Shown here: piece after piece, positions 18,428 to 62,386 of the stretch | Layout: each line of letters starts with the position of its first letter | How positions within the stretch are numbered: position 1 is the first letter of the stretch | NCBI GenBank assembly: GCA_900544545.1 | Contig: UQVY01000003.1 | Coordinates: 10,862-74,861, forward strand | Direction of reading: 5' to 3' | Source: an uncultured Eubacteriales bacterium | GTDB taxonomy: Bacteria > Bacillota > Clostridia > Christensenellales > CAG-314 | DNA: 64,000 bases | Notes under the pieces: model-generated | Databases searched by the model: none | Told to the model about the DNA's origin: nothing | What the model saw: the letters and a program-made list of their open reading frames with translations, nothing else | Made by a program: the position numbers and the translations under genes

Positions 18428-18444
18428 AGAATTTTTTGGAAAAT

Positions 18445-21413: not shown

Positions 21414-21497
21414 ACACATTTTTGTTTTGTGTTATTAAATGTTTTGAATTTGTGAAAAGTCTTAGGGCTGATTTTTATTATAAAACAGCGATATATA

Positions 21498-22497: not shown

Positions 22498-22523
22498 TAA
22501 AAAAACCCTCGCGGAAACGAGGG
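22498..22523 (-). terminator. Rho-independent terminator of rplI
   Basis: On the minus strand: ccctcg-tttccg-cgaggg followed by TTTTTTT, 25 nt after the rplI stop. Confidence 0.75.
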
Positions 22524-22547
22524 TGGTTTGCGTTATTTTCGTGTTAA

Positions 22548-22994
22548 TCAGACCTCGGGAACGACGTTGATTACGATGTCGGACGAAACGTTGGCGTAAA
22601 GTTTGACCGAAACGGGATGGGTTCCGACCGTTTTTATAGGCTCTTTGATGACGAGCTGTTTTTTGTCGATTTCGTAGCCCGCGGCAACGAGCGCGTCGCT
22701 GATTTCTTTGGCGGTAACGCTGCCGAAAAGCCGTCCGTTTTCGCCGCACCTGATGGGAAGCGTGAATTCCTTGCCCTTGATTTCCTTCGCCATAGCCGCG
22801 TAGGCAGCCTTTTCTTCCGCAAGTTTGCGCGCCTGAGCCGCTTCGTGAAGCTTCACGCTGTTGACCGTATCGGAGGTAGCGACCGTTCCGAGTTTTTTGG
22901 GAGCCAGAAAGTTCTTGTAATAACCCTCCGAAACGTCTACGATCTGACCTTTTTTGCCCTGTCCTTTAACGTCGGCAAGAAGCAGAATTTTCAT
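22548..22994 (-). CDS. rplI: 50S ribosomal protein L9
   Basis: MKILLLADVKGQGKKGQIVDVSEGYYKNFLAPKKLG is the canonical L9 N-terminus. 148 aa. Confidence 0.95.
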   Translation of the reverse strand: MKILLLADVKGQGKKGQIVDVSEGYYKNFLAPKKLGTVATSDTVNSVKLHEAAQARKLAEEKAAYAAMAKEIKGKEFTLPIRCGENGRLFGSVTAKEISDALVAAGYEIDKKQLVIKEPIKTVGTHPVSVKLYANVSSDIVINVVPEV

Positions 22995-23045
22995 TTTTTC
23001 CTCCTTTTCGGAGATTCGGGCGAACCTCCGTCGATTCTCGTGCGT

Positions 23046-28076: not shown

Positions 28077-30111
<2,035 letters not shown>

Positions 30112-30123
30112 CCGAGGTGAAAG

Positions 30124-34985: not shown

Positions 34986-35219
34986 TAAAAGAAACGACTT
35001 CCGAAAAGGAAGGCAGAAATTACTATTCGTTATAGGGCGCGTCTTCGGGCGCGTCTTTTTTTATTGGCTTGAGAAAACCGATTTTACGGGCTTGAGAAAA
35101 CCGAAGAATCGGAGGGGAAAAGCCTTTTTTACTCATTAAGAGGAGCTTCGACGGTTTCTCTTTTTTTTCGCGCGGGCGGAGGACGTATAATCGGGACAAA
35201 GCTTTCGGAGGTATCGTTT

Positions 35220-35387
35220 ATGGCTTTGACTTACTTCTTCATCGTTTTCTTCGGAATCGCTGCGGTCGCGGCTTTCGCGGAGCTTATACGGACGCTTTCG
35301 GCGGCGGTCAGAGAGCGGAGAGAAATCAAAAAATCCCTGCGGCTCAGGAGATGTTTTTATCGCCACGACGACCGCAGGAAAGGCTGA
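35220..35387 (+). CDS. Possible 55-aa single-TM microprotein
   Basis: GGAGG lies 8 nt upstream of the ATG. MALTYFFIVFFGIAAVAAFA followed by an Arg/Lys-rich tail. Not in the ORF track. No homology recognised. Confidence 0.3.
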   Translation: MALTYFFIVFFGIAAVAAFAELIRTLSAAVRERREIKKSLRLRRCFYRHDDRRKG

Positions 35388-35510
35388 TTTACCGAGCGGC
35401 AAAGACTTTCCGATTCTCGGCAAACGATTTCCAAATGATTTCCTGAATTCTGCGCAAGCGGATAAGCCCGAGGGCGTAAACTCCGCGAGCGCGGTCGGAA
35501 CGCGGGAATA

Positions 35511-35537
35511 AGAAAAAGGCTGCCCGAAAGCAGCCTT
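35511..35537 (-). terminator. Hairpin terminator downstream of the 802-aa gene (possibly bidirectional)
   Basis: aaggctgc-ccgaaa-gcagcctt. T-run on the minus strand (TTTTTCT) and TATTTT on the plus strand. Confidence 0.55.
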
Positions 35538-35683
35538 TATTTTCGTTTAATTCGGGATAAAGCCCGTAAGTCGAGTTTAAGTCGGACAAGCCGAACTTGA
35601 CGAACGTCAAGCCGAGTCAAACCGAGTTTAACGCAGGCAAGTCGGAATTCACGACCGCAGAGCCGAGGTTATCGCGCGCGATT

Positions 35684-38092: not shown

Positions 38093-38401
38093 CTTAACCA
38101 CCTGTAATAGAATGATGTGTTTGCGCGGAAAAAACCGCGCGCTTCGTAAAGGAAACGAGCGGCTCAGAAGAGCCTGAGCCGTTTCCGTATAAACTTACTT
38201 ATCTATTTTATAACATAATCCGTAAAAAATCAAATAATTTTAGCTATTTTCTTCGCCGAATTTGCAATAAAAACCGTCCGTCTGCTTAAACTAAACGGGA
38301 AAAGAGGCGTAATCCGCAGAGAAAAGGCTTTTTATAAGCCTAAAAAACCAAGGACGGATATTTTTTCTCTTTTACTTTATCGGACTAAATCGGAGGCTCT
38401 T

Positions 38402-38761
38402 ATGTCGGACGGATTCAGAAAAACGGCCCTTATAATTATGGGACTCGCCGCGGGACTTATAAACGGATTTCTCGGAGGAGGCGGGGGAGTCGTATGTGTG
38501 GCGGCTCTTTTGTGGCTCCTTAAGCTCAAACCCAAGGAGGCTCACGCGACCGCGCTTTTCGTGATTCTTCCGATAACCGCGCTCTCCGCGCTCGTTTATA
38601 TTATCGGAGGGAAAACCGACCTTGACCTCACTATTCTCGCGTCGCTCGGAGTTACGGCGGGAGGAATCGTCGGAGCAAAACTCCTCGGGAAACTGAAAAC
38701 GCCGACGGTAGAGCTGATTTTCGCGGGGATACTCGTTTTCGCGGGGATAAGTATGCTCTGA
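38402..38761 (+). CDS. Half-size (4-TM) TauE/SafE-family membrane protein, first of a pair
   Basis: GGAGG RBS. GLAAGLINGFLGGGGGVV N-terminal motif and a TauE-like C-terminus IFAGILVFAGISML. 119 aa. Confidence 0.75.
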   Translation: MSDGFRKTALIIMGLAAGLINGFLGGGGGVVCVAALLWLLKLKPKEAHATALFVILPITALSALVYIIGGKTDLDLTILASLGVTAGGIVGAKLLGKLKTPTVELIFAGILVFAGISML

Positions 38762-38814
38762 GCCGATTAAAAGGAGATTGTATGTAAACCGATAAAGCGG
38801 AGATTTGTGCGAGC

Positions 38815-38952
38815 GAGGATTATACGAGTGATTATATGAGCAGATATATAAACCGCGCATATAGACCGCGCATATATAAATAAGGATTACGGTTACGAAG
38901 GATTATATCAAAATAAAGGGTTATATTAAGGATTATATTAAGGATTATATCG
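38815..38952. repeat. AT-rich degenerate short tandem repeats between the two TauE halves
   Basis: aaggattata(t) variants occur about 6 times (38815, 38881, 38898, 38916, 38928, 38940). accgcgcatata occurs twice (38851, 38864). Confidence 0.8.
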
Positions 38953-46340: not shown

Positions 46341-48416
46341 ATGAAATCCACGAAAAAAACGGACGAAGGACAAATCGGATTCGATATAAACGCGGCCGAA
46401 ACCGAAAAGCCCGCGAAACGCGGCCGTAAAACCGCCGCAGAAAAGCCCGCGGAAAAGACGGGAACGGATTACGACGTTTCGGCGATAAAGGTCCTCGAGG
46501 GACTGGAAGCCGTAAGAGTGCGTCCGGGTATGTATATAGGAAATACCGACAAGACGGGGCTTCACCATATCTTATGGGAGATTATAGACAACTCCGTGGA
46601 CGAAGCGGCGAACGGATTCGGCGATCTTATAGAAGTTACGATTCACGCGGACGGAAGCGCGACCGTTTCGGACAGAGGAAGGGGAATTCCCGTCGATATT
46701 TCCGCGCAGTATAAGGTTTCGGGCGTGGAACTGGTGTTTACCAGGCTTCACGCGGGCGGAAAGTTCGAGAATAAGGTTTACGGCACGACGGGCGGACTTC
46801 ACGGAGTGGGCGCGAGCGTTACCAACGCGCTCAGCAAGTGGCTTACGGCGGAGATATACAAGGACGGAAAGAAGTATACCTTCAGATTCCGCACGGTAAG
46901 GCGGAGAGGAAAGCTTCTTGCGGGAGAGCCCGACGGAGAACCGACGGTCGAAACGGTAAAGGGAGAAAGGACGGGTACTACGGTTACGTTTATGCCCGAC
47001 GCGGAGGTCTTCGGAGATGCGGAATTCGACGCGGACACCGTCGAAGAAAGGCTCAGAGAGCTTTCTTTCCTCAATAAGGGAGTCAGGTTCGTTTATACCG
47101 ACGAAAGAATCGGACGGAAGGACGAATTCCTCTCGAAAAAAGGTCTTCCCGACTTCCTCAACTTCCTCACGGGCGACGAAACCCTTCTGCGCTCGCCGGT
47201 ATTCATAAGCGGACGGTCGGGCGACGGGAATAAGTTATGGGCGGAGGTGGCTTTCGATTTCGCCAACACCTTCGGCGACAGGATAGTTTCCTACGTCAAC
47301 AATATCCCGACGATAAACGGAGGTTCGCACGAAACGGGCTTCAAGTCGGGACTGACCAAGGTCCTCAACGACTTCGCGAGGGCGAATAAGCTCGTAAAGG
47401 AAAAGGACGATACTCCGCAGGGCGACGATTACAGAGAGGGAATGACCGCCGTCGTTTCCATAAAGCTCGAGGAGGTTCAGTTCGAGGGACAGACCAAAGG
47501 AAAACTCGGAAACGCCGAAGTCAAGAGTATGATGGAGGGCGTGGTAGTTTCGGCTCTCGGAGATTATCTTCAGACGAAGGAAGGCAAAAAGAACGGCGAG
47601 ATCATCGTAAAAAGAGCGCTCGAAGCGCAGAAGCTCAGAGTTAAGATAAGCAAGGAAAAAGAGCTTGCCAAGCTCAACAACACCCTCGACGGACAACTCA
47701 ATCTCGTCGGAAAGCTCAGCGGTTGCACCGGAAGGGACGTTTCGGTAAACGAACTCTATATAGTCGAGGGAGATTCCGCGGGAGGAAGCGCGAAACAAGC
47801 CAGGGACAGAAGATTTCAGGCGATTCTTCCGCTCAAGGGAAAACCCCTCAATACCGAGAAAAGACAGCTCAATTCCATTCTCGACAACGACGAGATGAGG
47901 AGTATTATTTCGGCGATAGGAACCAATCTCGGGAATAAATTCGATATCAGGAAGCTCAAGTACGACAAGATAGTCATTTTAAGCGACGCGGATCAGGACG
48001 GAGCGCACATAAGAGCGATTTTACTGGCGTTTTTCCTTAGGTATATGAGAGAGCTTATCGAGGAGGGACATATTTACATAGGAATGCCGCCGCTTTACAG
48101 GGTTTACAAGAAGGATTTCACGGCTTATTGCTACGACGACGCCGAGCTTAAAGAGGTTATGGAAAAGTCGGGAAAGAACGCTTCTCTTCAGCGTTACAAA
48201 GGTCTCGGCGAAATGAATCCCGAACAGCTCTGGGAAACCACGCTCAATCCTAAATCGAGGTCGCTTATGAGAGTTACGATGGAGGATGCGGCGGCTGCCG
48301 ACAGAATAACGGACATTCTTATGGGCAACAATTCCAAGGTCAGACAGGCTTATATAATGGAACACGCCGACTTCAACAAGGGCGGCGACGAAACCGTCGA
48401 CAAGTATCTCGGTTAG
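46341..48416 (+). CDS. parE: Topoisomerase IV subunit B (second type IIA B subunit) with Lys-rich N-terminal extension
   Basis: [45 protein letters not shown]. Paired with an A subunit that lacks a GyrA box. Confidence 0.88.
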   Translation: MKSTKKTDEGQIGFDINAAETEKPAKRGRKTAAEKPAEKTGTDYDVSAIKVLEGLEAVRVRPGMYIGNTDKTGLHHILWEIIDNSVDEAANGFGDLIEVTIHADGSATVSDRGRGIPVDISAQYKVSGVELVFTRLHAGGKFENKVYGTTGGLHGVGASVTNALSKWLTAEIYKDGKKYTFRFRTVRRRGKLLAGEPDGEPTVETVKGERTGTTVTFMPDAEVFGDAEFDADTVEERLRELSFLNKGVRFVYTDERIGRKDEFLSKKGLPDFLNFLTGDETLLRSPVFISGRSGDGNKLWAEVAFDFANTFGDRIVSYVNNIPTINGGSHETGFKSGLTKVLNDFARANKLVKEKDDTPQGDDYREGMTAVVSIKLEEVQFEGQTKGKLGNAEVKSMMEGVVVSALGDYLQTKEGKKNGEIIVKRALEAQKLRVKISKEKELAKLNNTLDGQLNLVGKLSGCTGRDVSVNELYIVEGDSAGGSAKQARDRRFQAILPLKGKPLNTEKRQLNSILDNDEMRSIISAIGTNLGNKFDIRKLKYDKIVILSDADQDGAHIRAILLAFFLRYMRELIEEGHIYIGMPPLYRVYKKDFTAYCYDDAELKEVMEKSGKNASLQRYKGLGEMNPEQLWETTLNPKSRSLMRVTMEDAAAADRITDILMGNNSKVRQAYIMEHADFNKGGDETVDKYLG

Positions 48417-48443
48417 CGGGATTTCGCGGCGCAGGAGGAAGAA

Positions 48444-50834
48444 ATGGGAAGGACGAAAATCGCGGAAAAGACCGCCGTTCGCAGCGGAACGAATCTTATA
48501 TTCAAGGACATAGAGAAGGTAATGCACGATTCGATGCTGCCTTACGCCGAGCACGTTATTATGGAGCGCGCTCTGCCGAGAGTCGAGGACGGACTCAAAC
48601 CGGTTCAGAGAAGGATTCTCTATACTATGCACGAACTCGGAGTTACTCCCGACAAGCCTACGCTCAAAAGCGCGAGAATCGTCGGCGACTGTATGGGTAA
48701 GTATCATCCGCACGGCGACAGCTCCATTTATCAGGCGCTCGTCAGAATGGCTCAGGATTTCAACCTCTGTATGCCCCTCGTGGACGGTCAGGGCAACTTC
48801 GGAAGCAACGACGGCGACGGCGCGGCTGCTATGCGTTATACCGAAGCAAGGCTTTCTCCCCTCGCTACGGAGCTTCTTGCGGATATAGACGAAGGTACGG
48901 TTTCCTGGAGCCGCAACTACGACGACAGCCGTAAAGAGCCGGATATGCTCCCGGGAAGATTCCCAAATCTCCTCGTAAACGGCGCGAACGGAATCGCGGT
49001 AGGGCTTTCCACGAATATTCCGCCGCATAATTTCGCCGAAGTCATAGACGCCTGCGCGGCTTACATAGACGACGGGGACATAACCTCGGACGGACTTCTC
49101 AGATACGTGAAAGGTCCGGATTTTCCGACGGGCGGATACGTCATAGCTCCGAATCTCAGGGAGATCTACGAAACCGGAAACGGAAAACTCGTTCTTCGCG
49201 GAAAGCTCTCGGTCGAAACCGATTCTTCGGACAGAAAACTTCTCGTGGTTACGGAACTGCCCTATCAGGTCGTTCGCTCGCAATGGCTCGCGGAGGTCGC
49301 TAAACTCAAAGAGAGCAATAATATTCAGGAAATAGTCGATATAGTAGACGAATCGGACAAGGACGGAGTAAGAGCGGTCATAAAGCTCAGAAAGGACGCC
49401 GACGAAAAAGCAATTGCGGAGCTTCTTTATAAAAAGACCTCGCTCGAAGTCGCCTGCGCGGTCAATATGGTGGCTATCGCCGGAAACAAGCCCGTTCTGC
49501 TTTCCCTGAGGGACGCCGTCGCGTATTACGTGGAATATCAGAGAAAGGTAGTTACGGGAAGGACGGAATTCCGCCTCGGAAACGCCCGCGACAGAGAACA
49601 TATAGTCAACGGACTGGTTATAGCGGTCGGAAATATCGACGAAGTTATAGACATAATAAAGAAAGCCGAAAATACTCCCGCCGCAAAACGGAAGCTTATC
49701 GAAAGATTCTCTCTTTCGGATATTCAGGCGCAGGCTATACTCGACCTCAGACTTTCGAGAATAACCAAGCTCGAAACGAGCAGGCTTCTCGACGAACTGA
49801 AAGAACTGAGAGAGCTTATAGAATCGCTCTCGGGAATTCTGGGCGACGGACGAAAACTCGACGAGGTTATAAAGAGCGAGCTTGCGGCAATAAAAAAGAA
49901 ATACCGAGTCCCGAGAAGAAGCACGGTCGTTTCCTCTCCCGACGAATGTAAAATCCTCACCGAAGCAGATATAGTCATAGAGGACTTTTCGGTTACGGTT
50001 TCGGAGGACGGAAGAATAAAGAAAGTCCTTTCTTCCCGCGCGGGCGAATCGGGAAAAACCCTTTCCGTCGCGTCGGTCAAAGCGAAAACTCTCGATACGC
50101 TTCTCGGATTTACCGACGAAGGAAACTGCTTCAGGCTCCCGCTCTCGGAAATCCCCCTTTCGAAACAATCCTCCAAAGGCTCGGATATAAGGGATTACGT
50201 GAAATCTATGGGCGACGGCGAAAAAGTCGTTTCGCTCTTCTCCTACAAGGATATACCCGAAACCACGCTCGTATGGGCGACCGCGGACGGAAATCTCAAA
50301 CGCACCGAATTCAGGGAATGCGTTTCCGGAAAGTCGGAGTTCTTCCCCGTTATAAATCTTCGCGGCGAGGATAAGGTCGTTTCGGTTTCCGCGGCGAACG
50401 ACGGAGGACTTATGATGATAAGTCGCCTCGGAATGGGACTCAACGTTATGATTTCCGCCATTCCCGTTCAGGGCAGAGTTTCTTCGGGCGTACAGGGAAT
50501 GACTCTCGAGGAAGGGGATTCGGTCGTTTCGGCGGAGGCGGTCAGCGACGAGGGAGAAATCGTCCTTATGACCGACAAGGGCAGCGTAAAGAGAGTGTTC
50601 GTATTCGACTTCGAGCCTTCCGCCCGCAGAAGAAAGGGAGTCAAGGCTATCGAATTCGGAATAAACGGCTCGGAACTGGTTTTCGCGTCCTACGTAAGAG
50701 AGCCTTACGACATTCTCGTGAAAACCGACGCGGGCGAATATATCCTCAATACCGAGAATATATCCATAGAAACGCGACAGCATAAAGGCAAGGTCGTCAA
50801 TAAGGGCAAGGTTCTCGCGGCGGGCAGAATCTGA
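48444..50834 (+). CDS. parC: Topoisomerase IV subunit A
   Basis: [45 protein letters not shown]. No QxRGGxG GyrA box seen. Confidence 0.88.
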
Positions 50835-50866
50835 CGACGAACGGACGCGGACAACGGAGGACCGAT

Positions 50867-51814
50867 ATGACTTTTACTCAGACCGTAAAGGCGGAAATAC
50901 TCAGAGGAATCGGAAAACCCGAGCCTTGTTGCAGAAAAGCTTATCTTTCGTCGCTTATCCGCTCGGCAGGCACGATAGGCTTCGGCGCGTCGGGATTTTC
51001 GCTTACCTTTTACAGCAAGAACGAAAAACTCGTCGGTTTTATCGAAAAACTTATAACCGAAGATTATCCGGAATGCGGCTATGCGGTCACGTCTGACGCG
51101 AAAACCAAGGTTTTCGGAACGGAAGTCCGCGACTCCGCGAGAATGCTCAGGGAATGCGGGATTATTTCGGCGGGAAAGTCCCTCGAACTCGTGGACGGAA
51201 TAAGCGACCTTTTCACGGACAGGGAGTGCTGCGCGAAAAGCTATCTCACGGGGCTGTTTCTCGGCTGCGGAACGGTAAAGATCCCCATAGCCTCCGACCT
51301 CACCGAGGACGTCAAGGGAGGCTATCACCTCGAACTCGCTCTTTTCAACTTCGATACGGCTCTCGATACGGTCCATCTTTTTTCGGAATTCGGATTCGAC
51401 GCCGGTCTCGGATACAGAAAAGAGAAACAGCTCGTCTACTTCAAAGACGGAGAAACCATAAGCGATCTTCTCGCGTTTTTCGGAGCGGGCGGAGGAGTTA
51501 TGACCATTCAGAATTCCATCGCGGCGAGAAGTATCCGGGCGGACGCGAACCGCGCGGGCAACTGTATTTCGGCAAACATAGACAAAGCCGTGGCAGCCGC
51601 GCAGAATCAGCTTCGGGCGATAGAATACATAGAAAAGACCGACGGTCTCGACTCGCTTTCTCCGCAGATGAAGGAAACGGCGATTTTAAGGAAGGCTTAT
51701 CCGGAGGCTACGCTCGAGGAGCTTACGGAAAAACATAACGGCGTCAGCAAAAGCGGCGTCAATCACAGACTCAGGGGGATAGTCAGAATTGCTCGGGAAA
51801 GAGAAGAACGCTGA
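50867..51814 (+). CDS. whiA: DNA-binding sporulation/cell-division regulator WhiA
   Basis: MTFTQTVKAEIL...CCRKAYLSSLIRSAG, degenerate LAGLIDADG-like middle region, C-terminal HTH (SKSGVNHRLR). Confidence 0.92.
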   Translation: MTFTQTVKAEILRGIGKPEPCCRKAYLSSLIRSAGTIGFGASGFSLTFYSKNEKLVGFIEKLITEDYPECGYAVTSDAKTKVFGTEVRDSARMLRECGIISAGKSLELVDGISDLFTDRECCAKSYLTGLFLGCGTVKIPIASDLTEDVKGGYHLELALFNFDTALDTVHLFSEFGFDAGLGYRKEKQLVYFKDGETISDLLAFFGAGGGVMTIQNSIAARSIRADANRAGNCISANIDKAVAAAQNQLRAIEYIEKTDGLDSLSPQMKETAILRKAYPEATLEELTEKHNGVSKSGVNHRLRGIVRIAREREER

Positions 51815-51815
51815 T

Positions 51816-52346
51816 TTGACTAAAGAGGCTCTCGGGAACCGCATTATGATCGTGGGCTGCGGAGGAGCCGGGAAAAGCACCTTCGCCGCGAAGCTCGGAG
51901 AACTCACGGGACTGCCCGTCTATCATCTGGACAGGTATTTCTGGCGGGACTGGCAGGAAACGCCCGAAAAGGAATGGACGGATAAGGTTACGGAGCTTGC
52001 GTCGGAGGACAGATGGATTATCGACGGGAACTATTCCGCGACTATGGAAATAAGACTTGAACGCGCGGATACGCTTATATGGCTGGATTACGGGACCTTG
52101 ACCTGTCTTTCGGGCGTATTGAAAAGAGTTTTCCGAAACAAAGGCAAGGTTCGTCCCGATATGGGCGAAGGCTGCTACGAGAAATTCGACTGGAGTTTCA
52201 TAAAATGGGTGCTGACCTTCAGAGGCAAACCTCGGAAAAGAATCGAAAGCCTTATAAACAAGCACTCGGAAAGAGTCAGAATCATAACTTTCAAAAACAG
52301 GAAAGCCGCCGGCGACTTTTTTGCGAATGTTTTTCGGACCCCGTGA
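51816..52346 (+). CDS. Topology-modulation / adenylate-kinase-like P-loop protein (FlaR-like)
   Basis: IMIVGCGGAGKSTFA P-loop followed by LPVYHLDRYFW. Start is uncertain: TTG 51789, TTG 51816 or ATG 51846. Confidence 0.7.
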   Translation: MTKEALGNRIMIVGCGGAGKSTFAAKLGELTGLPVYHLDRYFWRDWQETPEKEWTDKVTELASEDRWIIDGNYSATMEIRLERADTLIWLDYGTLTCLSGVLKRVFRNKGKVRPDMGEGCYEKFDWSFIKWVLTFRGKPRKRIESLINKHSERVRIITFKNRKAAGDFFANVFRTP

Positions 52347-52372
52347 ATATACGATTCGCGGGGCTTGTTTTT
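52339..52372 (+). terminator. Rho-independent terminator overlapping the stop codon
   Basis: ccccgtgaat-atacg-attcgcgggg, a 10-bp stem with one G-U pair, then CTTGTTTTT. Confidence 0.75.
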
Positions 52373-52383
52373 ATGCAGAAAAA

Positions 52384-52457
52384 TGTGGATAAGTGGATAA
52401 CTTTTGTGGATAACCTGTTGATAAAACCCGAAATTACGGTGGAAAACCTGTGGACAA
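52384..52457. promoter_or_regulatory. Cluster of five head-to-tail DnaA boxes
   Basis: TGTGGATAA at 52384-52392 and 52405-52413 is the perfect reverse complement of TTATCCACA. One-mismatch boxes: AGTGGATAA at 52392-52400, TGTTGATAA at 52416-52424 and TGTGGACAA at 52449-52457. Confidence 0.75.
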
Positions 52458-53156
52458 GTGCGAAAACGAGGCGATTTTAAAGCAAAATCACACGATTGCG
52501 CCTTTATACATATTTATAAACGGCAAAAAGCTAAAGAGCGCCGAGAGGTTTTTCGTTTAGGGGAATCCGGCCTCCGCGGCGAGTCGAAGCCTCGGACTTG
52601 CGGGCGGAAAAAAAGCGGAGAAGCTTCCGCGAACCTCGATTATTAAAGTAACAAACTACTTTTCTGCCCGATTAACGCATAATCCGCGCTTTAATCGGTG
52701 ATAAGCCTAAAAATAAGCAACTGCATATCGGATTTTCTTTTTGTTTCTTCCCGTGAAACGGTCGGACTTCGGGAATTTGATTTTAAATAAAAATACATAA
52801 AATGAATAAAAATTCCAAATAAAAAACGTCCGGAGGTTCGGGAAGCCGATTTTTTCGGAAAAAGGGGCATAGGCTCGGAGAAAATTTGAAAAACGGCTTA
52901 TTTAAAACGTTTTTTTCGGAAACGCCTGTCCCGAAACCGTAAAGAATATAAAAAATCCCTTCGTCCGCAATAATCGGGCGCAAAAGCGACTCTCCAATAG
53001 ATATCCAAAAAAGAAGGGAAAATTCGGATTTTCGCTGAAAAATATTCGGATAATATGGAGTTTTTCCGAAAAAATAAAGATATCCGAGTTAACGCAAGGT
53101 TTACTGAGGGTTAATTCTGCGTTCAAAAAAAAGACGAAAGAAAAAGTAATATTTTC

Positions 53157-53185
53157 TTGACATATGGGCTGAAGTATGCTAAAAT
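53157..53185 (+). promoter_or_regulatory. Near-consensus sigma-A promoter of the ABC operon
   Basis: TTGACA, 17 nt, TGc-TAAAAT. Followed by a leader of about 240 nt before ATG 53429. Confidence 0.7.
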
Positions 53186-53428
53186 GATAAAAAACCAAAA
53201 AGGAGATGCCCCGTCCGAGGGCGCCGGAGTACGGTTTTTTCGCGGCGGAGAGGCTTTTTTTAAGCCTGAGCGAGTCCGCGGAGTATGATTTGCGAAATCC
53301 GTTGATAACTGTCTAAAGCAATATAGCGATGACGGAATCGACGGCGGTTCCCTATAAGGATATTAGGAGAGTACGCTCTTCAATATTATAAAAATTATGG
53401 CTACAAGCCAAAAACAGGAGGAACTCTT

Positions 53429-55951
53429 ATGCAGAAAAACACATTAAAGCTCGTGTTGTTACTCGTGCTTTGCCTTGCGTTGGTTTTCGTGTTGGCAGGA
53501 TGTCCGAACACTCCCGATCCCGGTCCGACACCCCCCGGTCCCGGTCCTGGTCCCGATCCCGGTCCCGGTCCCGACCCGCAGCCGCCGACGGATAAGTCTT
53601 ATACTTACACCGACAGCGTATCGACGATGGCTTCCAACTGGAACAACCACATTTACGAGTCCAACGATGACAGCTATCCTATCAGCTTTATCTCCACCGG
53701 TTTCTATGACGTAGTTTTCGCTGACGATACTTACACCAGTTACGAAATAGTTCCCGCTATGGCTGCTTCTTATCCCGTTGACGTTACCAGCGAGTACGTC
53801 GGCGAAAAGTGGGGCATCACCGAGAACGATCAGTATCGTGCCTGGAAGATCGAGCTTAATCCCAACGCTTGCTGGGAAAACGGCGTAAAGATCGACGCTG
53901 AAACCTATCTCTATTCCATCAAGGCTCTCTTCGATCCTCAGAGAATCAACTACAGAGCCGCTGACTGGATGGGCGATACTTCCGACTTCTCCATTAAGGG
54001 CGGTTACGAATACTTCTGGTCGGACAGAACCGAACAGCAGTGCGTCTATTACGCTGAAAACAAGAAGGAAATGACTCCCGAAAACACCGATATGTACCTT
54101 GACGTTGCTTATGCCGGATTCTTCCTCGGTGACAGCATGAAGAACTTCTATGAAGGCGGATACGCTGACTACTTCACCATTACTTATAACGGTGAAACCT
54201 ATGACTTCTACGCTAAATACGCAGAACAGGGCGAAGTTAAGGTTACCGAAGAAATCATCGGCGAGCTCCTTGCTCTTTCCCAGAACTTCGGCGACAGCAG
54301 CGAAATTGCTTGGCAGGAATGGGTTTATTGGTATTACGCTCACCCGCACGCTACCTTCGAGGACGTAGGCGTTATCAAGAACGGCGATTATTCCATCACC
54401 TTCATTCTTTCCAAGTCCCTCGGCGGTAAGACCGGCGACACTTACGCGGAATGCGAAGACGCTTTCTATCTTCTTTATAACCTTTCCGGTAACTTCCTTG
54501 TTTACCCCGAATATTACGAGAAATACGGTAAGTTCGAAGGCGACAACAAGGTTTACTCCAGCACCTATAACACCAGTGTTGAAACCACTATGTCTTACGG
54601 TCCTTATAAGCTCACAAAGTACACCAGAGACGCTTATATGGAATACGAAAGAAACGATAAGTGGTACGGTTACAGCGTAGACGCCTACAAGGGTATGTAC
54701 CAGACCTCCAAGATCACCACCAGAGTCGTTAAAGAATCCGAAACCGCAAAGCTTATGTTCCTCAAGGGACAGCTTATGGCTTACGGTCTCCAGACAGACG
54801 ACTTCGACGAGTACAGATACTCCAGATACGCTTACTTCACTCCTTCGGATTCTATCTTCTTCATGGTTCTTTCCGGACACAAGGATATCCTTAAGAGAGA
54901 AGACGACACCACCAATAAGTCCATGATCCTCAACACCAACTTCAGGAAGGGTATGGCTCTTATCTACGATAAGGATCAGTTCTGCGCTGCTACCAACCCC
55001 GCACAGACCGCTGCTTTCGGTATCTTCGGCAACACCTACGTTGTAGATCCTGCAACCGGTGAAACCTACAGATCCACCGACGCCGCTAAGAAGGTTCTTT
55101 GCGAATACTACGGCGTTAAGTACGGCGAAGGCGAGCTTTACGAAACCCTTGACGAAGCAGTTGCTTCCATCACCGGTTACGACGCAAAACTTGCTAAAGA
55201 ATATCTCCTTAAAGCATACGAAGAAGAAGTTGCTGCCGGCAACCTCAAGGAAGGTCAGACCATCGTTATCGATTACTCCGCATCTACCGTATCCGCAAGA
55301 ATGCAGATGATCGTTAACTACATGACCGAAAAGGTTGACGAAGTAGTTAAGGGCACCGCTCTCGAAGGCAGAATCAAGTTCACGATTTCTTCGGCAGTCG
55401 GCGGACAGTGGTCCACCTACATCAAGAACGGTACCAGAGACGTTTGCCTCTGCGGTTGGACCGGAGCGAGAATGAATCCGTTCGGACTCGTTGACCTTTA
55501 CGTTAACCCCAACAGAGCTTACGACGCAGCTTGGTATGACGGATCTCAGCAGTCTCTTACCATCGACCTCAGCGATTACGAAGACGGTAAGTACGGCGAA
55601 ATCACCCTTACCCTTAAACAGTGGTCCGACGCTCTTCAGGGCGGCAACGTTAAGGATAAAGAAGGTAACACCTACAACTTCGGCGCAAACAGGGCTGAAA
55701 AGGATACCCGTGTTTACATTCTTTCCAGATGCGAACTCGCTATCCTCGGAACCGGTTCTTACATCCCGATGATGCAGGACGCAAGCCTTGCTCTTCGTTC
55801 CGCAAAGGCTCACTTCATCACCGATACTTATAATCCGATGCTCGGTTACGGCGGAATCGCTTACCTTGTATACGATTATGACGACGCAGCATGGGATGAA
55901 TTCGTTAAAGCTAACAACAGCGACCTTAAGGACGTTTATAAGGCAGCTTAA
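53429..55951 (+). CDS. Oversized (840 aa) family-5 (Opp/Dpp-type) ABC substrate-binding lipoprotein
   Basis: AGGAGG RBS. Lipobox VLAGC-PN. Pro/Gly linker PDPGPTPPGPGPGPDPGPGPDPQPP. WENGVKIDAETYLYSIKALFDP is a family-5-like motif. Confidence 0.85.
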   Translation: MQKNTLKLVLLLVLCLALVFVLAGCPNTPDPGPTPPGPGPGPDPGPGPDPQPPTDKSYTYTDSVSTMASNWNNHIYESNDDSYPISFISTGFYDVVFADDTYTSYEIVPAMAASYPVDVTSEYVGEKWGITENDQYRAWKIELNPNACWENGVKIDAETYLYSIKALFDPQRINYRAADWMGDTSDFSIKGGYEYFWSDRTEQQCVYYAENKKEMTPENTDMYLDVAYAGFFLGDSMKNFYEGGYADYFTITYNGETYDFYAKYAEQGEVKVTEEIIGELLALSQNFGDSSEIAWQEWVYWYYAHPHATFEDVGVIKNGDYSITFILSKSLGGKTGDTYAECEDAFYLLYNLSGNFLVYPEYYEKYGKFEGDNKVYSSTYNTSVETTMSYGPYKLTKYTRDAYMEYERNDKWYGYSVDAYKGMYQTSKITTRVVKESETAKLMFLKGQLMAYGLQTDDFDEYRYSRYAYFTPSDSIFFMVLSGHKDILKREDDTTNKSMILNTNFRKGMALIYDKDQFCAATNPAQTAAFGIFGNTYVVDPATGETYRSTDAAKKVLCEYYGVKYGEGELYETLDEAVASITGYDAKLAKEYLLKAYEEEVAAGNLKEGQTIVIDYSASTVSARMQMIVNYMTEKVDEVVKGTALEGRIKFTISSAVGGQWSTYIKNGTRDVCLCGWTGARMNPFGLVDLYVNPNRAYDAAWYDGSQQSLTIDLSDYEDGKYGEITLTLKQWSDALQGGNVKDKEGNTYNFGANRAEKDTRVYILSRCELAILGTGSYIPMMQDASLALRSAKAHFITDTYNPMLGYGGIAYLVYDYDDAAWDEFVKANNSDLKDVYKAA

Positions 55952-55998
55952 CGACTGAATAAGTCCGATTGTTTAAGTTTTATACTTAAATAAATTAC

Positions 55999-56030
55999 CC
56001 GGAGATTCCGATTCGGTTCGGGATCTCCGG
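55999..56030 (+). terminator. Intra-operon hairpin between the SBP and permease genes (partial terminator / processing site)
   Basis: ccggagat...atctccgg stem with an internal tccga/tcgg region, followed by AAATTTT. Confidence 0.45.
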
Positions 56031-56077
56031 AAATTTTACTTGAATTGGCTGCGTAGTTCAGTCAACCCGGAGAAACT

Positions 56078-57055
56078 ATGAAATACTTTTTAAAACGATT
56101 GGCATTGATGGTATTCGTTACGGCGGTTATCTTCCTGATCTGCTTCGTGCTGATCAGAGCGTTACCGCTCAGACCGATATCCGAATCGGCTACGCCTGAA
56201 CAGAAGACGCTTATCATTCTTAACAGGCAGAGAATGGGCTGGACCGACGAAAAAGGTAATAAGTTGCCCATTTTTCAGCAGCTCGGACCGTATCTCAAAC
56301 AAATATTTACCGAATGGAGATGGGGTGAGAGCGAAGTTTCATACAAAGGTTACGACGCAACGGAAGTCGTAGGCGAAAAGCTTCCGAACACGATGTACGT
56401 CAATCTTCTTTCGATTATACTCAGTATTCCTATCGGTATACTGTTAGGTATATATGCGGCACTTAAAAAGAACACGTGGATCGACCACCTTATCAGCACG
56501 GGCGTAATGATCTTCATATCGGTTCCGAGTTTCGTATACGCGTTCCTTGTGCAGAATCTTTTCTGTTATCAGTGGAAGATATTCGAGAGTCCGCTGATGG
56601 ATCTGAGCGTTCCGCTTCTTTCCTGGAAGTGCTTCGTTTCGGTAATAATGCCGATAATCGCGTTGTCTTTCGGAACGGTAGCGGGCTTCACGCGAGTCAC
56701 GAGAGCGGAGCTTACGGAGGTTCTGACGAGCGACTTTATGCTTCTTGCGAGAACCAAAGGACTTACCAAAGCGCAGGCGGTTATGAGACACGGTATGAGA
56801 AACTGTATGATCATAATTCTTCCCGCTATTTTCGGTCAGTTCATCGGAATAATGGGCGGCTCGATGATTATTGAGAATATTTTCTCGATTCCCGGCGTCG
56901 GCGGACTTTACCTCAACTCGATTCAGAACACGGACTACAACTACTTTATGTACATTTCGATGTTCTACACCGTTATCGGTCTGTTATCGGGTATAGTCGT
57001 CGATATAAGCTACGGATTCATTGATCCTAGAGTAAGGATGGGTTCAAGAAAATGA
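56078..57055 (+). CDS. oppB: ABC permease, OppB/DppB type
   Basis: MKYFLKRLALMVF N-terminus. EAA-loop region LARTKGLTKAQAVMRHGMRN. 325 aa (normal size). Confidence 0.88.
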   Translation: MKYFLKRLALMVFVTAVIFLICFVLIRALPLRPISESATPEQKTLIILNRQRMGWTDEKGNKLPIFQQLGPYLKQIFTEWRWGESEVSYKGYDATEVVGEKLPNTMYVNLLSIILSIPIGILLGIYAALKKNTWIDHLISTGVMIFISVPSFVYAFLVQNLFCYQWKIFESPLMDLSVPLLSWKCFVSVIMPIIALSFGTVAGFTRVTRAELTEVLTSDFMLLARTKGLTKAQAVMRHGMRNCMIIILPAIFGQFIGIMGGSMIIENIFSIPGVGGLYLNSIQNTDYNYFMYISMFYTVIGLLSGIVVDISYGFIDPRVRMGSRK

Positions 57056-58776
57056 GAAAGACTAATATTGACATTAATAATATACCGGCGGAGAAGTTTG
57101 CTTTCGCGACCGAAGGCGTTTCTTTGCACGATACGAAGCTTAAAACCAAGCCGCGCAGCTATATGAAAGACGCGTGGACGAGATTTAAGAAGAATAAATC
57201 GTCCGTTGCGGCTGCGATCATTATCGGATTCCTTATTCTGTATTCGATAATCGTCCCCGTCGTATCGCCCTATTCTCTCGCGGATACCGACCTTTACTAC
57301 AAGAACCTTCCCGCTTACACGGTAGGCAGCGAATGGCTCGCGGACGGAGCTAAGGTCGAAACCGTCAACGAACAGAGATACTTCACCTACAAGTTGTGGG
57401 AAAAAGAAACCGGCGACACCATCATCAACAAAGTTCTGGATATTTACGATACCACCAATCAGGACGGCAACACCGAAACGATGTACAAAATCAGACTCAA
57501 TCAGTACACCAAAATCGGTATTTATACTTGGTCGTTCTCGGTTGACGATTTCATAAAGATGCAGAAATGGCAGGATGAAACGGGTATTCAGCTGATTTAT
57601 CCCATGACGAATACCGATACCGCAACCCTCGGTTTCGATATCACGAAGGAAACCGTCGCGACTTTCGCCCCCAACTACTACTATAAGATAAACAAGACCG
57701 GCTTCGCTCTCGACGCGGACGGAAATATCATCAAGCCCGAAATCGACAAGGAAGGCAACGTTCTTAATTACGACGCGATTCAGACCATTTACAGACCGTA
57801 TTCGGCGAGAAGAGTCATGAACATCAAGACTACCGTTACCGAAGTGGACGAAAACGGCAATACCGTCGAGAAAGAAGTACAAAAGAGCGTTTATCAGGGC
57901 GATCTTTATCAGAGTAAATTCGGAAGGAACGAAGACGGAACCTACGACTACGAATATTACAGAACGACCGGTTCGGCTACCAACCCCAAGGACGGTACTC
58001 CGGAAATGGTCGCCTGCAGAATCAAATATTCCGCGTACTTCCAGTACACCAAGGGCTATACGCCTTACTTCCTTTTCGGTACCGAAATCAACGGCCGCGA
58101 TATTTTCACGAGTATCGCAATCGGCGCGCGTTTCTCGCTTCTTCTTGCGGTATGCGTATCCTTCATTAACTTCGTAATCGGTATGATTTACGGTTCGATC
58201 GAAGGTTATTACGGCGGCGCCGTCGACCTTACCCTCGAAAGAATTTCGGATATTCTCTCGGGCGTACCTTTCACGGTCGTCGTTTCGCTGCTGACTTTCT
58301 ATGCGGCAAGTCCGGAGATTCCCTGGAATCCGGCGCCTATCGTAATGCTTGTCATCGCGTTCATAGCGACGGGCTGGATAGGAACGGCTTCGCTCGTCAG
58401 AAAACAGTTCTACAGATTCAAAGGACAGGAGTACGTAACCGTTGCGAAATCGCTGGGCGCGAAGGACACGAGAATTATGTTCAAGCATATTCTTCCCAAC
58501 TCCCTCGGCACCATCGTTACGTCCACCGCTCTTATGATTCCGGGCGTCATTTCTTCGGAAACGATGCTTACCTACCTCAACATTATCAACCTTAACAGCA
58601 ATACGGTCACTACGGTCGGTATTATGCTCAGTGAGGCGAACTCGACCTTCAGCAGCGCGCCGCACGCAATGATAATTCCTTCGCTGTATCTTGCGCTGAT
58701 GCTCATTTCGTTCAACCTCTTCGGTAACGGTCTGAGAGATGCGTTCAACCCGTCACTCAGAGGCTCGGAGGATTAA
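57052..58776 (+). CDS. oppC: ABC permease, OppC/DppC type, with about 270-aa extracytoplasmic insertion after TM1
   Basis: ATGA overlap with oppB. TM1 at aa 50-70. The canonical FGTEINGRDIFTSIAIGARFSL appears only at aa ~341. EAA region VAKSLGAKDTRIMFKHILPN. 574 aa. Confidence 0.85.
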   Translation: MRKTNIDINNIPAEKFAFATEGVSLHDTKLKTKPRSYMKDAWTRFKKNKSSVAAAIIIGFLILYSIIVPVVSPYSLADTDLYYKNLPAYTVGSEWLADGAKVETVNEQRYFTYKLWEKETGDTIINKVLDIYDTTNQDGNTETMYKIRLNQYTKIGIYTWSFSVDDFIKMQKWQDETGIQLIYPMTNTDTATLGFDITKETVATFAPNYYYKINKTGFALDADGNIIKPEIDKEGNVLNYDAIQTIYRPYSARRVMNIKTTVTEVDENGNTVEKEVQKSVYQGDLYQSKFGRNEDGTYDYEYYRTTGSATNPKDGTPEMVACRIKYSAYFQYTKGYTPYFLFGTEINGRDIFTSIAIGARFSLLLAVCVSFINFVIGMIYGSIEGYYGGAVDLTLERISDILSGVPFTVVVSLLTFYAASPEIPWNPAPIVMLVIAFIATGWIGTASLVRKQFYRFKGQEYVTVAKSLGAKDTRIMFKHILPNSLGTIVTSTALMIPGVISSETMLTYLNIINLNSNTVTTVGIMLSEANSTFSSAPHAMIIPSLYLALMLISFNLFGNGLRDAFNPSLRGSED

Positions 58777-58779
58777 AAA

Positions 58780-60939
58780 ATGAAAAAACTTGAAGTTAAC
58801 AATCTTAAAATATCCTTCAGAACCGGTAACGGAAAGGTTCAGGCAGTAAGAGACATCAGTTTCGACCTCGAAGAAGGCGAAACCCTCTGCATAGTAGGCG
58901 AGTCCGGCTCGGGTAAATCCGTTTCGGTCAGAGCAATTCTCGGAATTCTCGCTAACAACGCGATCGTCGAAGGCGGCGAGATATTCTACGACGGTAAAGA
59001 CCTTCTTAAAATCGACGAGGAAGACTTCCACAAGATCAGAGGCGACAAAATCGCGATGATTTTCCAGGATCCTCTTTCCTCCCTCAACCCCGTCGTTCGT
59101 ATCGGTAAACAGCTTACCGAAGCGATGATTCTTAAAAACAAGGTCAACAGAAAGAACTGCAGACACGATTTCAACAGCAAGATCAACGCTCTTCTTCACT
59201 GCACGAACCAGAGCGACGCTTATCGCGGAAACAGTCAGAAAGCCGAGTACAACAAGAAACTCGTAGAAAAGTTCAAGAAGTTCGAAGTCGCTCACGCAAA
59301 GATGGAGAGCGAGTACAACGTTGCTCTCGACTCCGCGCGCGAAGCTTACGAAAACATCAAGGACCTTCTCATAAGTATCCCCAAAAAGGCGATCGATAAA
59401 AAGGAAGTTGCCAGACAGCTCGTTTATATAATGAGGTTCATAAGGCATTCCGAAAACGAGTTCGTCGTCAAGGATATGAAGAGGCTCAACGAGCTTTGCG
59501 ACGAAATCAAGTCTAAGAAGGGCGAGCAGAATACGGACGTGCTTATCGAGCCTCTTACTCAGATAAGCGAAATTCTGAAGGCTGCCGTCGACGCGACGAG
59601 ACCGGACTTCTTCGCTCTCGGTTATTACGTAACCTTCGAATCGGAGGGCGCGATTCCCGCATACAAGACGGTCGAGGAGCTTAACAACATCACGACTCAG
59701 GCGCTCAGCCAGAAATTCCTTCAGGAATTCGTTTCCGTTTTCCAGAACGGTATCGGCTATTCCTTCAAAAACTCCATCGAAACGAAGAAAGTCGTGCTTC
59801 AGAAGCTCGGTCCTCTTCAGGAGAAATTCGTCGCCGCTTCCACTAAGGGCGAAAAGAAAAAGATCGCCGCGGAAATGATCAGGGAAGTCGAATCTTCCAT
59901 CGACAGGCTCGAAATCGAAAAGGACAGCCGTACCTATACCTTCAGAACGAGTATTCTTTCGGCTATCGACAGGTATTACTTCTCCATCAAGAAGAATGTC
60001 AAGGAGCAGAAGAGATACGAACGTCAGTCCGCAAGACGCGACCGTCTTACCGCAAAGGGCAGGACTCTCGACTGGGTTGTGGTCGATCCCGATATCGCCG
60101 ACCTCGACGAGCTTATGGAGAATATGAACCGCGTCGTCGAGCAGATCAAGGAGCATCTCGCTACTCAGATCGAACACGCGTCCGAGATTAATTCGACCGA
60201 GAAGATGATTACTCTTATCGACTTCCTCAAGGACAAATGCTCGGGTATGGTTTACAGAGTGTCCAAGATTGCCGCTAAGAACAAGGCTATCAAGCTTATG
60301 GAAGAGGTCGGTATTCCCAATCCGAGGAAGCGTTACAGACAGTATCCGTTCGAATTCTCCGGCGGTATGAGACAGAGAATAGTCATAGCTATCGCTCTTT
60401 CCGCAAATCCCGACATTCTTATCTGCGACGAACCTACGACGGCTCTCGACGTTACGATTCAGTCCCAGATTCTCGAACTCATCAACAAACTTAAAGTCGA
60501 ACGTAACCTTTCTATCATATTCATAACGCACGACCTCGGCGTCGTCGCGAATATGGCTGACCGTATAGCCGTTATGTACGCGGGTAAAATCGTCGAAACG
60601 GGAACGTCCGAGGACGTTTTCTACGATCCGAGACACCCCTACACGTGGGCTTTGCTTTCGTCGATGCCCGACCTCGATACGGACGAGAAACTGGAATCCA
60701 TTCCGGGTACGCCTCCGAATATGATTTATCCGCCCAAGGGCGACGCTTTTGCAGAAAGAAACAGGTACGCGCTGAAGATCGATTTCGAGGAACAGCCGCC
60801 TATGTTCAAGATAAGCGATACGCATTACGCCGCAACGTGGCTTCTTCACCCCAACGCGCCCAAGATCGATCCGCCTAAGATAGTTACGGAGAGAATTGCC
60901 CGTTCGAAACAAAAAGAAGGAGAAAAGGCTAATGGATAA
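58780..60939 (+). CDS. oppD: ABC ATPase, OppD type, with about 370-aa insertion inside the nucleotide-binding domain
   Basis: Walker A GESGSGKS (aa 41-48), [14 protein letters not shown] (aa 91-104), signature FSGGMRQR (aa ~526), Walker [14 protein letters not shown]-loop FITHDLG, Opp C-terminal domain HPYTWALL. Confidence 0.88.
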
Positions 60940-62386
60940 CAATAATAGAGAGGTTTTGCTTAAAGTCGAACATCTTGCGCAGTATTTCAAAAGCGGTCCC
61001 AGTTTCGAAACCAAGGCAGTAGACGACGTTAGCTTCGAGATTTATAAAGGCGAAGTTTTCGGTCTCGTAGGCGAATCCGGATGCGGAAAAACCACCACCG
61101 GACGAACCATAATGAAGCTTTACGACGCAACCAAGGGTAACGTCTATTTCAAGGGCGAAAGAATAGTCGCAGGACTGAGGAATTACAAGGAAAACATAGA
61201 CGCGGCGAAAATCGACCTTGCAAAGTTCATTACCGAGCATAAGGACGACACGGCTGCGATTTCCGCGGAAACCGAAAGAGTCAATGCCTATATCGCCGAG
61301 CAGAAAAAGGAAATGGAGCTTGCAAAGCACGACCATAAGTACTGCGACAAAGACCATTCCCGTAGGCTCGTGGCGGCTCTCGAAAAAGAAAAGGAAGAGA
61401 AGCTCGCCGAGGCTGCGAAGGGCGGCTATACCGCTAAACTTATGAGGGATCTCGAAGCCGCTCATAAGGAAAAACTCGAAAAGGAAAACAGAAGATACGA
61501 GTCGGAAATGGCTTCCGTCAATCCGAATAAAGCTGCTACGAGCCTCGTCGAAGAGCTTAAAGCGAAACACGAGGAAATCGTTCGCGTAGAAGAGCTGCAT
61601 TTCAAAAAGAAAGCGGAAGAAATCAAGAACAACGATCCGAGCGTCCTCATTACGAAGGATTACGCGGACAAGATTCGTGTCGCTAAAAGAGAAAGACTCA
61701 TCAACGAGATTCAGATGATCTTCCAGGATCCTATCGCTTCGCTCGACCCCCGTATGACCGTCCGCGACATCATCGCCGAAGGACTCATCATCAAAGGAAT
61801 CAAGGATAAGAAGTATATCGACGAGCAGGTCTACGAATATCTCGAAAAGGTCGGTCTCGTTCGCGAACACGCGGGACGTTATCCGCACGAATTCTCCGGC
61901 GGTCAGCGTCAGAGAATCGGTATCGCGAGAGCTATGATTATGCGTCCCGAACTTATCATTGCGGACGAACCCATAAGCGCGCTCGATGTTTCCATTCAGG
62001 CTCAGGTCATCAACCTTCTTAACGACCTCAGAGAAGAACTCGGTCTTACCATTCTTTTCATAGCTCACGACCTTTCGGTAGTCAAGTATTTCTCCGACAG
62101 AATCGGCGTTATGTACTACGGAAATATGGTTGAAATGGCGGATTCCGAAGAGCTTTTCGCTCACCCGATGCACCCGTACACGAAGTCGCTGCTTTCGGCG
62201 ATTCCGCTTCCCGATCCCAACTACGAACGCAGAAGAGTCAGAGTTCCTTATAACGCCGTTCAGGCTCACGATTACAGATTCGATAAACCCTCCTTCAAAG
62301 AAATCGCTCCCGGCCATTGGGTTAAAGCCAACGACGCGGAATTCGAGAAGATGAAGAAGGAGTACGTCGAACAGAGCAAGAAATGA
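60932..62386 (+). CDS. oppF: ABC ATPase, OppF type, with about 170-aa charged helical insertion
   Basis: GAAGGAG RBS. ATG 60932 overlaps the oppD end by 8 nt. Walker A GESGCGKT (aa 48-55), Q-loop [13 protein letters not shown] only at aa 261, [27 protein letters not shown]. Confidence 0.88.

Follow-up and report, generated by a model that had tools for sequence, protein, structure and literature searches.

The window, by which we mean the whole 64-kb stretch of DNA analyzed here, contains an array of six DnaA boxes, all in the same (minus-strand) orientation, within 74 bp (52384-52457). Two of the boxes are perfect, three have one mismatch, and one has two. The array is not oriC; it is probably an extra-origin DnaA-box cluster (DBC) of the type known from B. 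subtilis, most likely serving as a sink for DnaA. The boxes are clustered, match the consensus perfectly or nearly so, and lie in intergenic DNA outside oriC. To the original observation, the present analysis adds a sixth box, the helical phasing of the boxes, and their deep conservation.

Sequence and Statistics of the Box Array

Direct reading and a consensus search bear out the five same-orientation boxes of the preliminary description, two perfect and three with one mismatch. The spacing given there requires correction. The boxes were said to be 8-12 bp apart, but the start-to-start distances of these five are 8, 13, 11, and 33 bp, and boxes 1 and 2 overlap, sharing one base. The supposed 25-bp gap before the last box is mostly filled by a sixth box that had been overlooked (box 5 in Table 1). 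The cluster had also been placed 12 nt after the terminator of the upstream gene, whereas box 1 begins 20 nt past the stem. A weak box in the opposite orientation precedes box 1, but whether it counts as a box is uncertain, given its overlap with the T-tract of the terminator. Measured from box 1, the starts of all boxes but the second (0, 21, 32, 54, and 65) fall on multiples of about 10.7 bp, which should place these five on the same face of the helix.

At up to one mismatch, the window contains 19 matches to the DnaA-box consensus, compared with 6.6 +/- 2.7 in shuffled sequences, and none of 100 shuffles reaches 19. Five of the 19 sit within 74 bp. A Poisson estimate that takes the 14 matches outside the cluster as the background rate gives about 7e-8 per window for five matches in 80 bp. 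When two mismatches are allowed, the array is the sole site in the window with at least four matches per 100 bp. A similar density of boxes elsewhere had been named as an observation that would refute a special locus; within the 64-kb window there is no other cluster.

Table 1. Coordinates of the box array and of the features around it. Offsets are start positions relative to box 1; L011, L020, and L018 are related species described in the text.
Feature	Position	Strand	Offset (bp)	Sequence	Remarks
Upstream operon	46341-52346	+			Array behind its 3' end; Pfam and NCBIfam matches
parE-like gene	46341-48416	+			Second type-IIA topoisomerase pair
parC-like gene	48444-50834	+			Second type-IIA topoisomerase pair
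whiA	50867-51814	+
flaR-like gene	51843-52346	+			P-loop "DNA topology modulation protein"
Intrinsic terminator	52339-52372	+		10-bp stem CCCCGTGAAT...ATTCGCGGGG	Hairpin 52339-52363, then T-tract; terminator scan
Weak opposite-orientation box	52371-52379	+	-13	TTATGCAGA, 2 mismatches	13 bp before box 1
DnaA box 1	52384-52392	-	0	TTATCCACA, perfect (+ strand TGTGGATAA)	Kept in L011 and L020; TGTGTATAA in L018
DnaA box 2	52392-52400	-	8	TTATCCACT, 1 mismatch	Unchanged across all four species
DnaA box 3	52405-52413	-	21	TTATCCACA, perfect	Perfect across all four species
DnaA box 4	52416-52424	-	32	TTATCAACA, 1 mismatch	Kept in L011 and L020; L018 has a box at +42 instead
DnaA box 5	52438-52446	-	54	TTTTCCACC, 2 mismatches (+ strand GGTGGAAAA)	Only 1 mismatch in L011 (GGTGGATAA) and L018 (AGTGGATAA)
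DnaA box 6	52449-52457	-	65	TTGTCCACA, 1 mismatch	Perfect in L020; TGTGGATAT in L018
Near-consensus promoter	53157-53185			TTGACA-17-TAAAAT	Followed by 237-nt leader
Opp-type ABC transporter operon	starts 53429	+			First gene encodes the binding protein

Genomic Surroundings

The operon in front of the array ends with a gene whose earlier label, "FlaR-like", is fair, because its protein matches NCBIfam PRK08118 (E 1.3e-58; 198 bits, slightly below the 215-bit cut-off). The terminator behind this gene folds at -17.2 kcal/mol (z -3.3). The non-coding gap, described as about 1.1 kb, measures 1.08 kb (52347-53428). Between 51700 and 53600, the only sigma-70-like promoter is that of the downstream transporter operon, about 700 bp from the array; a promoter scan of both strands revealed none within or beside the array. 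At gathering thresholds, Rfam gives no match in the whole window, and at E<=1 the gap yields only a sub-threshold chance match (WsnRNA46, 22 bits vs a 65-bit cut-off). The tRNA/tmRNA scan was also negative.

Pfam matches to spoIIGA, sigE, GerAC, and RsgI in the window mark the organism as a spore-former of the Clostridia. It is uncultured and known from metagenome assemblies only; the species is present in more than 300 of these and is commonly found in the gut.

A 13-nt repeat flanks the gap, and its two copies supply the codons MQKN, one at a short open reading frame beginning at 52373 and the other at the downstream binding-protein gene. The repeat could be taken for the target-site duplication of an insertion, but this is unlikely, as the "insert" would then include the downstream operon's own promoter and ribosome-binding site. 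A weakly conserved block, TGC..TTATGCAT..TTAT.AAC, lies about 45 nt beyond box 6.

Conservation across Strains and Species

The exact WhiA protein is present in 319 blocks of the assembly collection, and ten strains were compared. Their arrays are identical except for that of L010, which has a single A-to-C change at the last base of box 6. In strain L008 a deletion of about 308 bp has removed part of the gap, and with it the AT-rich stretch at 52780-52830.

In a sister species, L011 ("Eubacterium sp.", WhiA 80% identical), the gene order is kept and six boxes stand at the same offsets as in the window. The third-codon-position identity of the flanking genes is only 0.47-0.58 in this comparison, and the remainder of the gap is about 50% identical, with indels. 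The array region nevertheless contains an exact run of 55 nt (52370-52424), and only one run in the 21 kb of synteny is longer. The array of L020 (WhiA 76%) again has the offsets 0, 8, 21, 32, 54, and 65. In L018/L088 (WhiA 52%; 34% GC vs 50% here), six boxes are found at 0, 8, 21, 42, 53, and 64. The sequence that separates boxes 4 and 5 is diverged although both boxes persist, and the weak opposite box (TTATNCANA at offset -13) is kept in all four species. The conservation of the boxes exceeds the neutral expectation, and this pattern of substitutions shows the array to be under selection as DNA.

The position of the array is conserved as well. In the four species it always follows the flaR-like terminator, and the gene order parE-parC-whiA-flaR-like is common to all relatives that carry it. 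L011, L020, and L018 likewise have a hairpin and U-tract at this site, with differing stem sequences, and the terminator hairpins of the species all fold (z -2.7 to -5.0). The array of L018 lies directly 3' of the terminator of the flaR-like gene; it is followed by a gap of similar size, which contains AT-rich tandem repeats, and the gene past this gap is pilin-like and not an Opp binding protein. The array thus goes with the topoisomerase-whiA-flaR operon, at its 3' end, and not with the downstream operon. Relatives with WhiA identity of about 40% or less (L012-L017) have no box cluster near whiA, and the array is confined to one clade.

The comparison between species also bears on a possible coding role of the conserved sequence, as the gene of a small protein. 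An open reading frame of 35 aa (MQKNVDKWITFVDNLLIKPEITVENLWTSAKTRRF) extends from the ATG at 52373 to the TAA at 52480. No stop codon interrupts it within the array in the window, L011, or L020, and the frame is kept because the diverged spacer stays 22 bp long. DnaA boxes are embedded in real coding sequence elsewhere (trmE, other gut bacteria), and the first four codons of the frame, MQKN, are the same as those of the downstream binding-protein gene by virtue of the 13-nt repeat. However, since the box offsets are 0 or 2 modulo 3, an open frame would arise by chance in about 1 in 8 cases. There are no synonymous changes in the boxes despite the saturation of third codon positions in the flanking genes, which points to constraint at the DNA level and not at the protein level. 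Past the last box, the peptide is unrelated and of very different length among the species. The ATG has no counterpart in L018, no Shine-Dalgarno sequence is present, and the start codon lies inside the T-tract of the terminator. A coding function was rejected on the substitution pattern, the open frame being explained by the phasing of the boxes, and we regard it as highly improbable.

The Three-Box Core at Other Loci

Public metagenome contigs were scanned for the three-box core TGTGNATAAGTGGATAA-N4-TGTGGATAA (TGTGGATAAGTGGATAA-N4-TGTGGATAA), which was found at 65 loci; L051 and L070 represent the source species. The core is located in the dnaA-dnaN spacers of L026, L042, L048, L065, and L067, where it directly adjoins TAG/TAA trios and AT-rich DNA on their 3' side. 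For L065, DnaA and DnaN were identified by Pfam, and for the other four by DnaA motif matches and open reading frame layout only. It also stands beside dnaA in L076 and L027/L054. In the largest group among the matches, the core is embedded in trmE/mnmE, within coding sequence that lies downstream of jag. Other non-origin sites occur too, such as L077, where the core lies between a gerA-like gene and tilS/spoIIE, again just after a terminator-like hairpin. The range of these loci makes the three-box core a general Firmicute DnaA-binding arrangement, used in and outside origins.

These loci are also relevant to the identity of the binding protein. The array is adjacent to whiA, the gene of a DNA-binding protein, and its direct 9-mer repeats look like iterons. 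It is conceivable, then, that a protein other than DnaA binds the repeats, for example WhiA in autoregulation, or that they are the iterons of an integrated element. We consider this most improbable because the 9-mers are the exact universal DnaA consensus. The cassette is present in dnaA-dnaN origins or beside dnaA in unrelated genomes without this whiA context, no mobile-element genes are found nearby, and the array is missing from more distant relatives despite the presence of whiA (about 40% identity). A literature search on DnaA boxes together with whiA produced nothing relevant.

Comparison with a Replication Origin

A non-origin DnaA-binding locus had been favored over oriC in the preliminary description, and every test that we ran agrees. 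An origin separated from dnaA, or half of a bipartite origin, would account for a dense cluster (six boxes in 74 bp) within 1.1 kb of non-coding DNA; the L018 array, too, is followed by a gap of about this length. AT-rich DNA occurs downstream (52780-52830), as do the AT-rich tandem repeats at the corresponding place in L018, and the three-box cassette is common to the dnaA-dnaN origin cores of other Firmicutes. In addition, the dnaA gene of this genome was not located within the scope of the search, that is, the window and 10 kb to its right. We nevertheless judge an origin at this locus to be very unlikely, on the following grounds.

The genes of a typical origin region are not within reach. 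Neither dnaA nor dnaN was found in the window or in the 10-kb right flank by a six-frame DnaA motif search and by Pfam (about 40 ORFs), and Pfam scans of the window revealed no recF. The statement that the locus is away from dnaA and dnaN therefore stands for the window and this flank, which contains metabolic genes only. Likewise, gyrB and gyrA, at 28-33 kb, are without the dnaA-dnaN-recF context, as had been noted.

The sequence elements required for opening the DNA are not in place either. Genuine origins with this cassette have trios and AT-rich DNA immediately 5' of TGTGGATAA, whereas here the trio side of the array is occupied by a GC-rich hairpin and coding sequence. Neither DnaA-trios (repeated 5'-TAG/TAA-3') nor a GC cluster directly precedes the terminal TGTGGATAA box. 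Instead, box 1 is preceded by GGGGCTTGTTTTTATGCAGAAAAA, the terminator, while the L065 counterpart is TAGTAGTAATAGTAATAAAGCC-TGTGGATAA. No AT-rich unwinding element adjoins the boxes. The AT-rich stretch to which the preliminary description drew attention, about 330 bp away, is on the wrong side of them, shows little conservation in L011, and has been lost from L008.

The large-scale features point in the same direction. Nearly all genes over about 50 kb to the left are on the + strand, and so are all of the approximately 20 genes over 20 kb to the right, in agreement with the earlier remark that genes on both sides point the same way. The GC skew is +0.108 on the left, close to zero over the opp operon (53.4-62 kb), and +0.08 to +0.145 at 62-72 kb. 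Apart from the dip over the opp operon, it is positive on both sides, without a switch at the array. Skew and gene strands together make the + strand look like the leading strand throughout these 72 kb, with no switch of either kind; neither an origin nor a terminus is indicated at the locus. Contigs of GCA_052288275.1 continue for 93 kb or more on one side of it and for 167 kb or more on the other.

Proposed Function of the Array

From the sequence and its conservation we infer DnaA binding, cooperativity, and a titration role at the array. We propose that domain IV of DnaA would bind the two perfect and the near-perfect boxes, with the perfect boxes nucleating the complex. The placement of the boxes, head to tail on the same face, would make contacts between neighbors through their AAA+ domains possible, and therefore also the cooperative filling of the weaker sites. 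An oligomer of approximately 5-7 DnaA molecules could form in this way. The terminator in front may shield the array from transcription of the co-directional operon. Such a complex would probably be unable to open the DNA, because neither DnaA-trios nor an unwinding element adjoins the array. It would then serve as a high-affinity parking site that withdraws DnaA from the free pool and away from oriC. On passage of the replication fork, the copy number of the array, and hence its capacity, would double, providing a negative buffer on initiation.

The most likely role of the array, judged by the B. subtilis clusters, is that of a DnaA sink. Several points weigh against this reading. With six boxes, the array is small beside the large B. 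subtilis DBCs. Titration is debated even in B. subtilis, because the effect of its DBCs on initiation is mild and a multicopy DBC plasmid did not complement. Furthermore, a titration role depends on the distance from the origin. Five of the six B. subtilis DBCs are oriC-proximal.

Alternatively, DnaA bound to the array could act locally as a transcription factor or roadblock, affecting operon termination and read-through, an unannotated transcript of the gap, or an antisense transcript. Several B. subtilis DBCs regulate their neighbors (sda, ywlC, vpr, yydA, trmE-noc) (PMC3245932, PMC4447404). The position of the array is locked to the operon terminator in four species, and the operon, with its functions in chromosome topology and segregation, would be a logical target for a signal of replication status. 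The partly conserved block about 45 nt past the last box and the conserved weak box of opposite orientation at -13 could also belong to such a control. However, there is no sigma-70-like promoter at the array, the nearest being about 700 bp off; the intervening DNA is poorly conserved, with 308 bp of the gap deleted in one strain; and the downstream gene itself is not conserved. The gap has no Rfam family match, and no boxes with up to one mismatch are found near the parE promoter region. We therefore regard transcriptional control as an unlikely main explanation, although less so than the other alternatives considered here. The specific suggestion that the array regulates the "adjacent strong promoter" is unlikely, in view of the distance and of L018, which keeps the array with a different downstream gene. 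Transcriptional control and the sink model are compatible and not mutually exclusive, and the array may have an additional local role in transcription.

A more far-reaching proposal is that the array is a device that couples the initiator to the topology and segregation operon, for instance with DnaA occupancy setting termination or read-through, or that it is a Clostridial counterpart of datA or DARS that alters the nucleotide state of DnaA. We consider this improbable. If it were true, the phased head-to-tail geometry would be a mechanistic requirement and not simply a matter of affinity, and the same would apply to the retention of the array through saturated divergence and a 16-point shift in GC content.

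As a DnaA sink, the array would leave current concepts unchanged, representing a further example of the known extra-origin clusters that soak up or sense DnaA. Experimental work on such clusters has nearly all been done in B. subtilis and E. coli (datA, DARS), and their use in Clostridia is essentially unexplored. The array offers a clean 74-bp example, with strong comparative evidence of selection, at a position that is unused in B. subtilis. It should be a handy test fragment for the way in which spacing and orientation govern cooperative DnaA loading, for the buffering of initiation in anaerobic spore-formers, and for a link between DnaA and the expression of topoisomerase IV and WhiA.

Comparison with Known Systems

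Among the E. coli systems, datA resembles the array by functional analogy: it lies outside the origin, carries about five high-affinity DnaA boxes, and reduces the initiation potential. No sequence homology is expected between the two. datA spans about 1 kb, needs an IHF site, and mainly stimulates the hydrolysis of DnaA-ATP (DDAH). To our knowledge, IHF is not a Firmicute protein. DARS1 and DARS2 are likewise small clusters of DnaA boxes outside oriC that act on DnaA, as is predicted for the array. Their core, however, has three boxes, one of them opposite, and DARS2 needs IHF/Fis, whereas the six boxes of the array all point one way.

The core of a Firmicute oriC consists of a dnaA-dnaN spacer with boxes, a GC cluster, trios, and an AT-rich DUE, as in B. 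subtilis incC and C. difficile oriC2 (PMC7561715). The array shares with such cores an identical cassette of overlapping boxes, TGTGGATAAGTGGATAAC-N3-TGTGGATAA, present in dnaA-dnaN spacers such as that of L065. Conversely, it is without trios, DUE, dnaA/dnaN, and a switch in strand bias or skew, and a terminator stands on the trio side.

The closest correspondence is with the DBCs of B. subtilis. Loss of all six DBCs leads to early initiation, and one re-inserted DBC gives partial rescue (PMC3245932). In vitro, box arrays are the regions of tightest and most cooperative DnaA binding (PMC4447404). One of the six DBCs is the thdF(trmE)-jag intergenic region, where DnaA appears to repress the trmE-noc operon (PMC3245932, PMC4447404). 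The array differs from these clusters in its compactness, with six boxes inside 74 bp, in the strictly uniform direction of its boxes, and in its location, the DBC sites of B. subtilis not including the 3' end of a parE-parC-whiA-flaR operon. No adjacent DnaA-regulated promoter was recognized at the array. Like the B. subtilis DBCs, it occurs in a Firmicute, consists of intergenic consensus or near-consensus boxes outside oriC without an unwinding element, and has a location that is conserved among related species. Its three-box core is, moreover, also found in the trmE-jag region of other Firmicutes.

Repeats and Variation in the Noncoding Gap

The noncoding gap between the flaR-like gene and the Opp-type operon is bordered at both ends by an exact 13-nt direct repeat, TTATGCAGAAAAA (Table). 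Both copies are also present in the sister species (L011), and by a rough estimate such a pair is expected by chance at ~0.01.

The gap itself varies. About 308 bp of it (window ~52614–52922) is missing in L008, one strain of the same species; this segment is therefore dispensable, and it includes the AT-rich stretch at 52780–52830. The low-GC relative carries AT-rich tandem repeats in its own gap, built from a 22-nt unit present 2.7 times and a 42-nt unit present 2.8 times in L018. The L088 contig ends at these tandem repeats, where that one assembly breaks.

Coordinates of repeats, leader and long open reading frames (window positions unless L018 is named)
Feature	Position	Strand	Remarks
TTATGCAGAAAAA, copy 1	52371–52383		within the terminator T-tract, immediately before box 1 of the DnaA-box array
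TTATGCAGAAAAA, copy 2	53427–53439		spans the binding-protein start codon (MQKN...)
Opp-type operon leader	53192–53428		237 nt, behind a near-consensus promoter
AT-rich tandem repeats	L018 11840–11965 and 12040–12164		in the gap, 3' of the array
Long ORF	35684–38101	minus	805 aa
Long ORF	36998–38107	plus	369 aa

Leader and Composition of the Opp-Type Operon

Comparison of the operon leader with that of the sister species revealed two nearly fully conserved blocks, at about 53296–53325, to which CGTTGATAACTGTCTAAAG belongs, and at about 53356–53428. Hairpins are present in both, and a search of the leader against Rfam gave no match. It may represent an undescribed cis-regulatory leader.

Over the opp operon only (window 53400–62000), the GC skew is approximately zero or slightly negative, and the GC content is also lower by ~3–5 points. 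The genes remain on the + strand despite the drop in skew. A possible explanation is that the operon differs in composition or is of foreign origin. The binding protein, a lipoprotein, carries a Pro/Gly/Asp-rich low-complexity linker directly after the lipobox (window 53480–53590), and its length differs among strains, from 830 to 841 aa.

Other Regions of the Window

Two type-IIA topoisomerase gene pairs are found in the window. The pair at 28201–32706 passes the equivalog cut-offs for gyrB and gyrA. The pair at 46341–50834 falls under the equivalog cut-offs for gyrase and for Gram-positive ParE/ParC and lies over the looser subfamily cut-offs PRK05644 and PRK05561; it is a putative topoisomerase IV, assigned from context only.

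Long ORFs occupy both strands of window 35000–38900, just upstream of a GerAC-like gene, and have no match in Pfam; the Table gives two examples. A low-GC island at 18000–23000 (GC 0.40–0.43, versus about 0.51) contains spoIIGA, sigE and two more ORFs, for which Pfam likewise returned no match.

DnaA Boxes within trmE

The metagenome scan for the three-box core of the array led to trmE/mnmE genes, downstream of jag, whose coding sequence holds 5–7 predicted DnaA boxes in a row (loci L021, L036, L059 and about 45 more). The host is an abundant human-gut bacterium, and the peptide encoded across the boxes includes LDNYVDKLDNYVDKWINAVDKLLKSVDN. This run is a coding-sequence version of the extra-origin DnaA-box cluster located at trmE-jag in B. 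subtilis.
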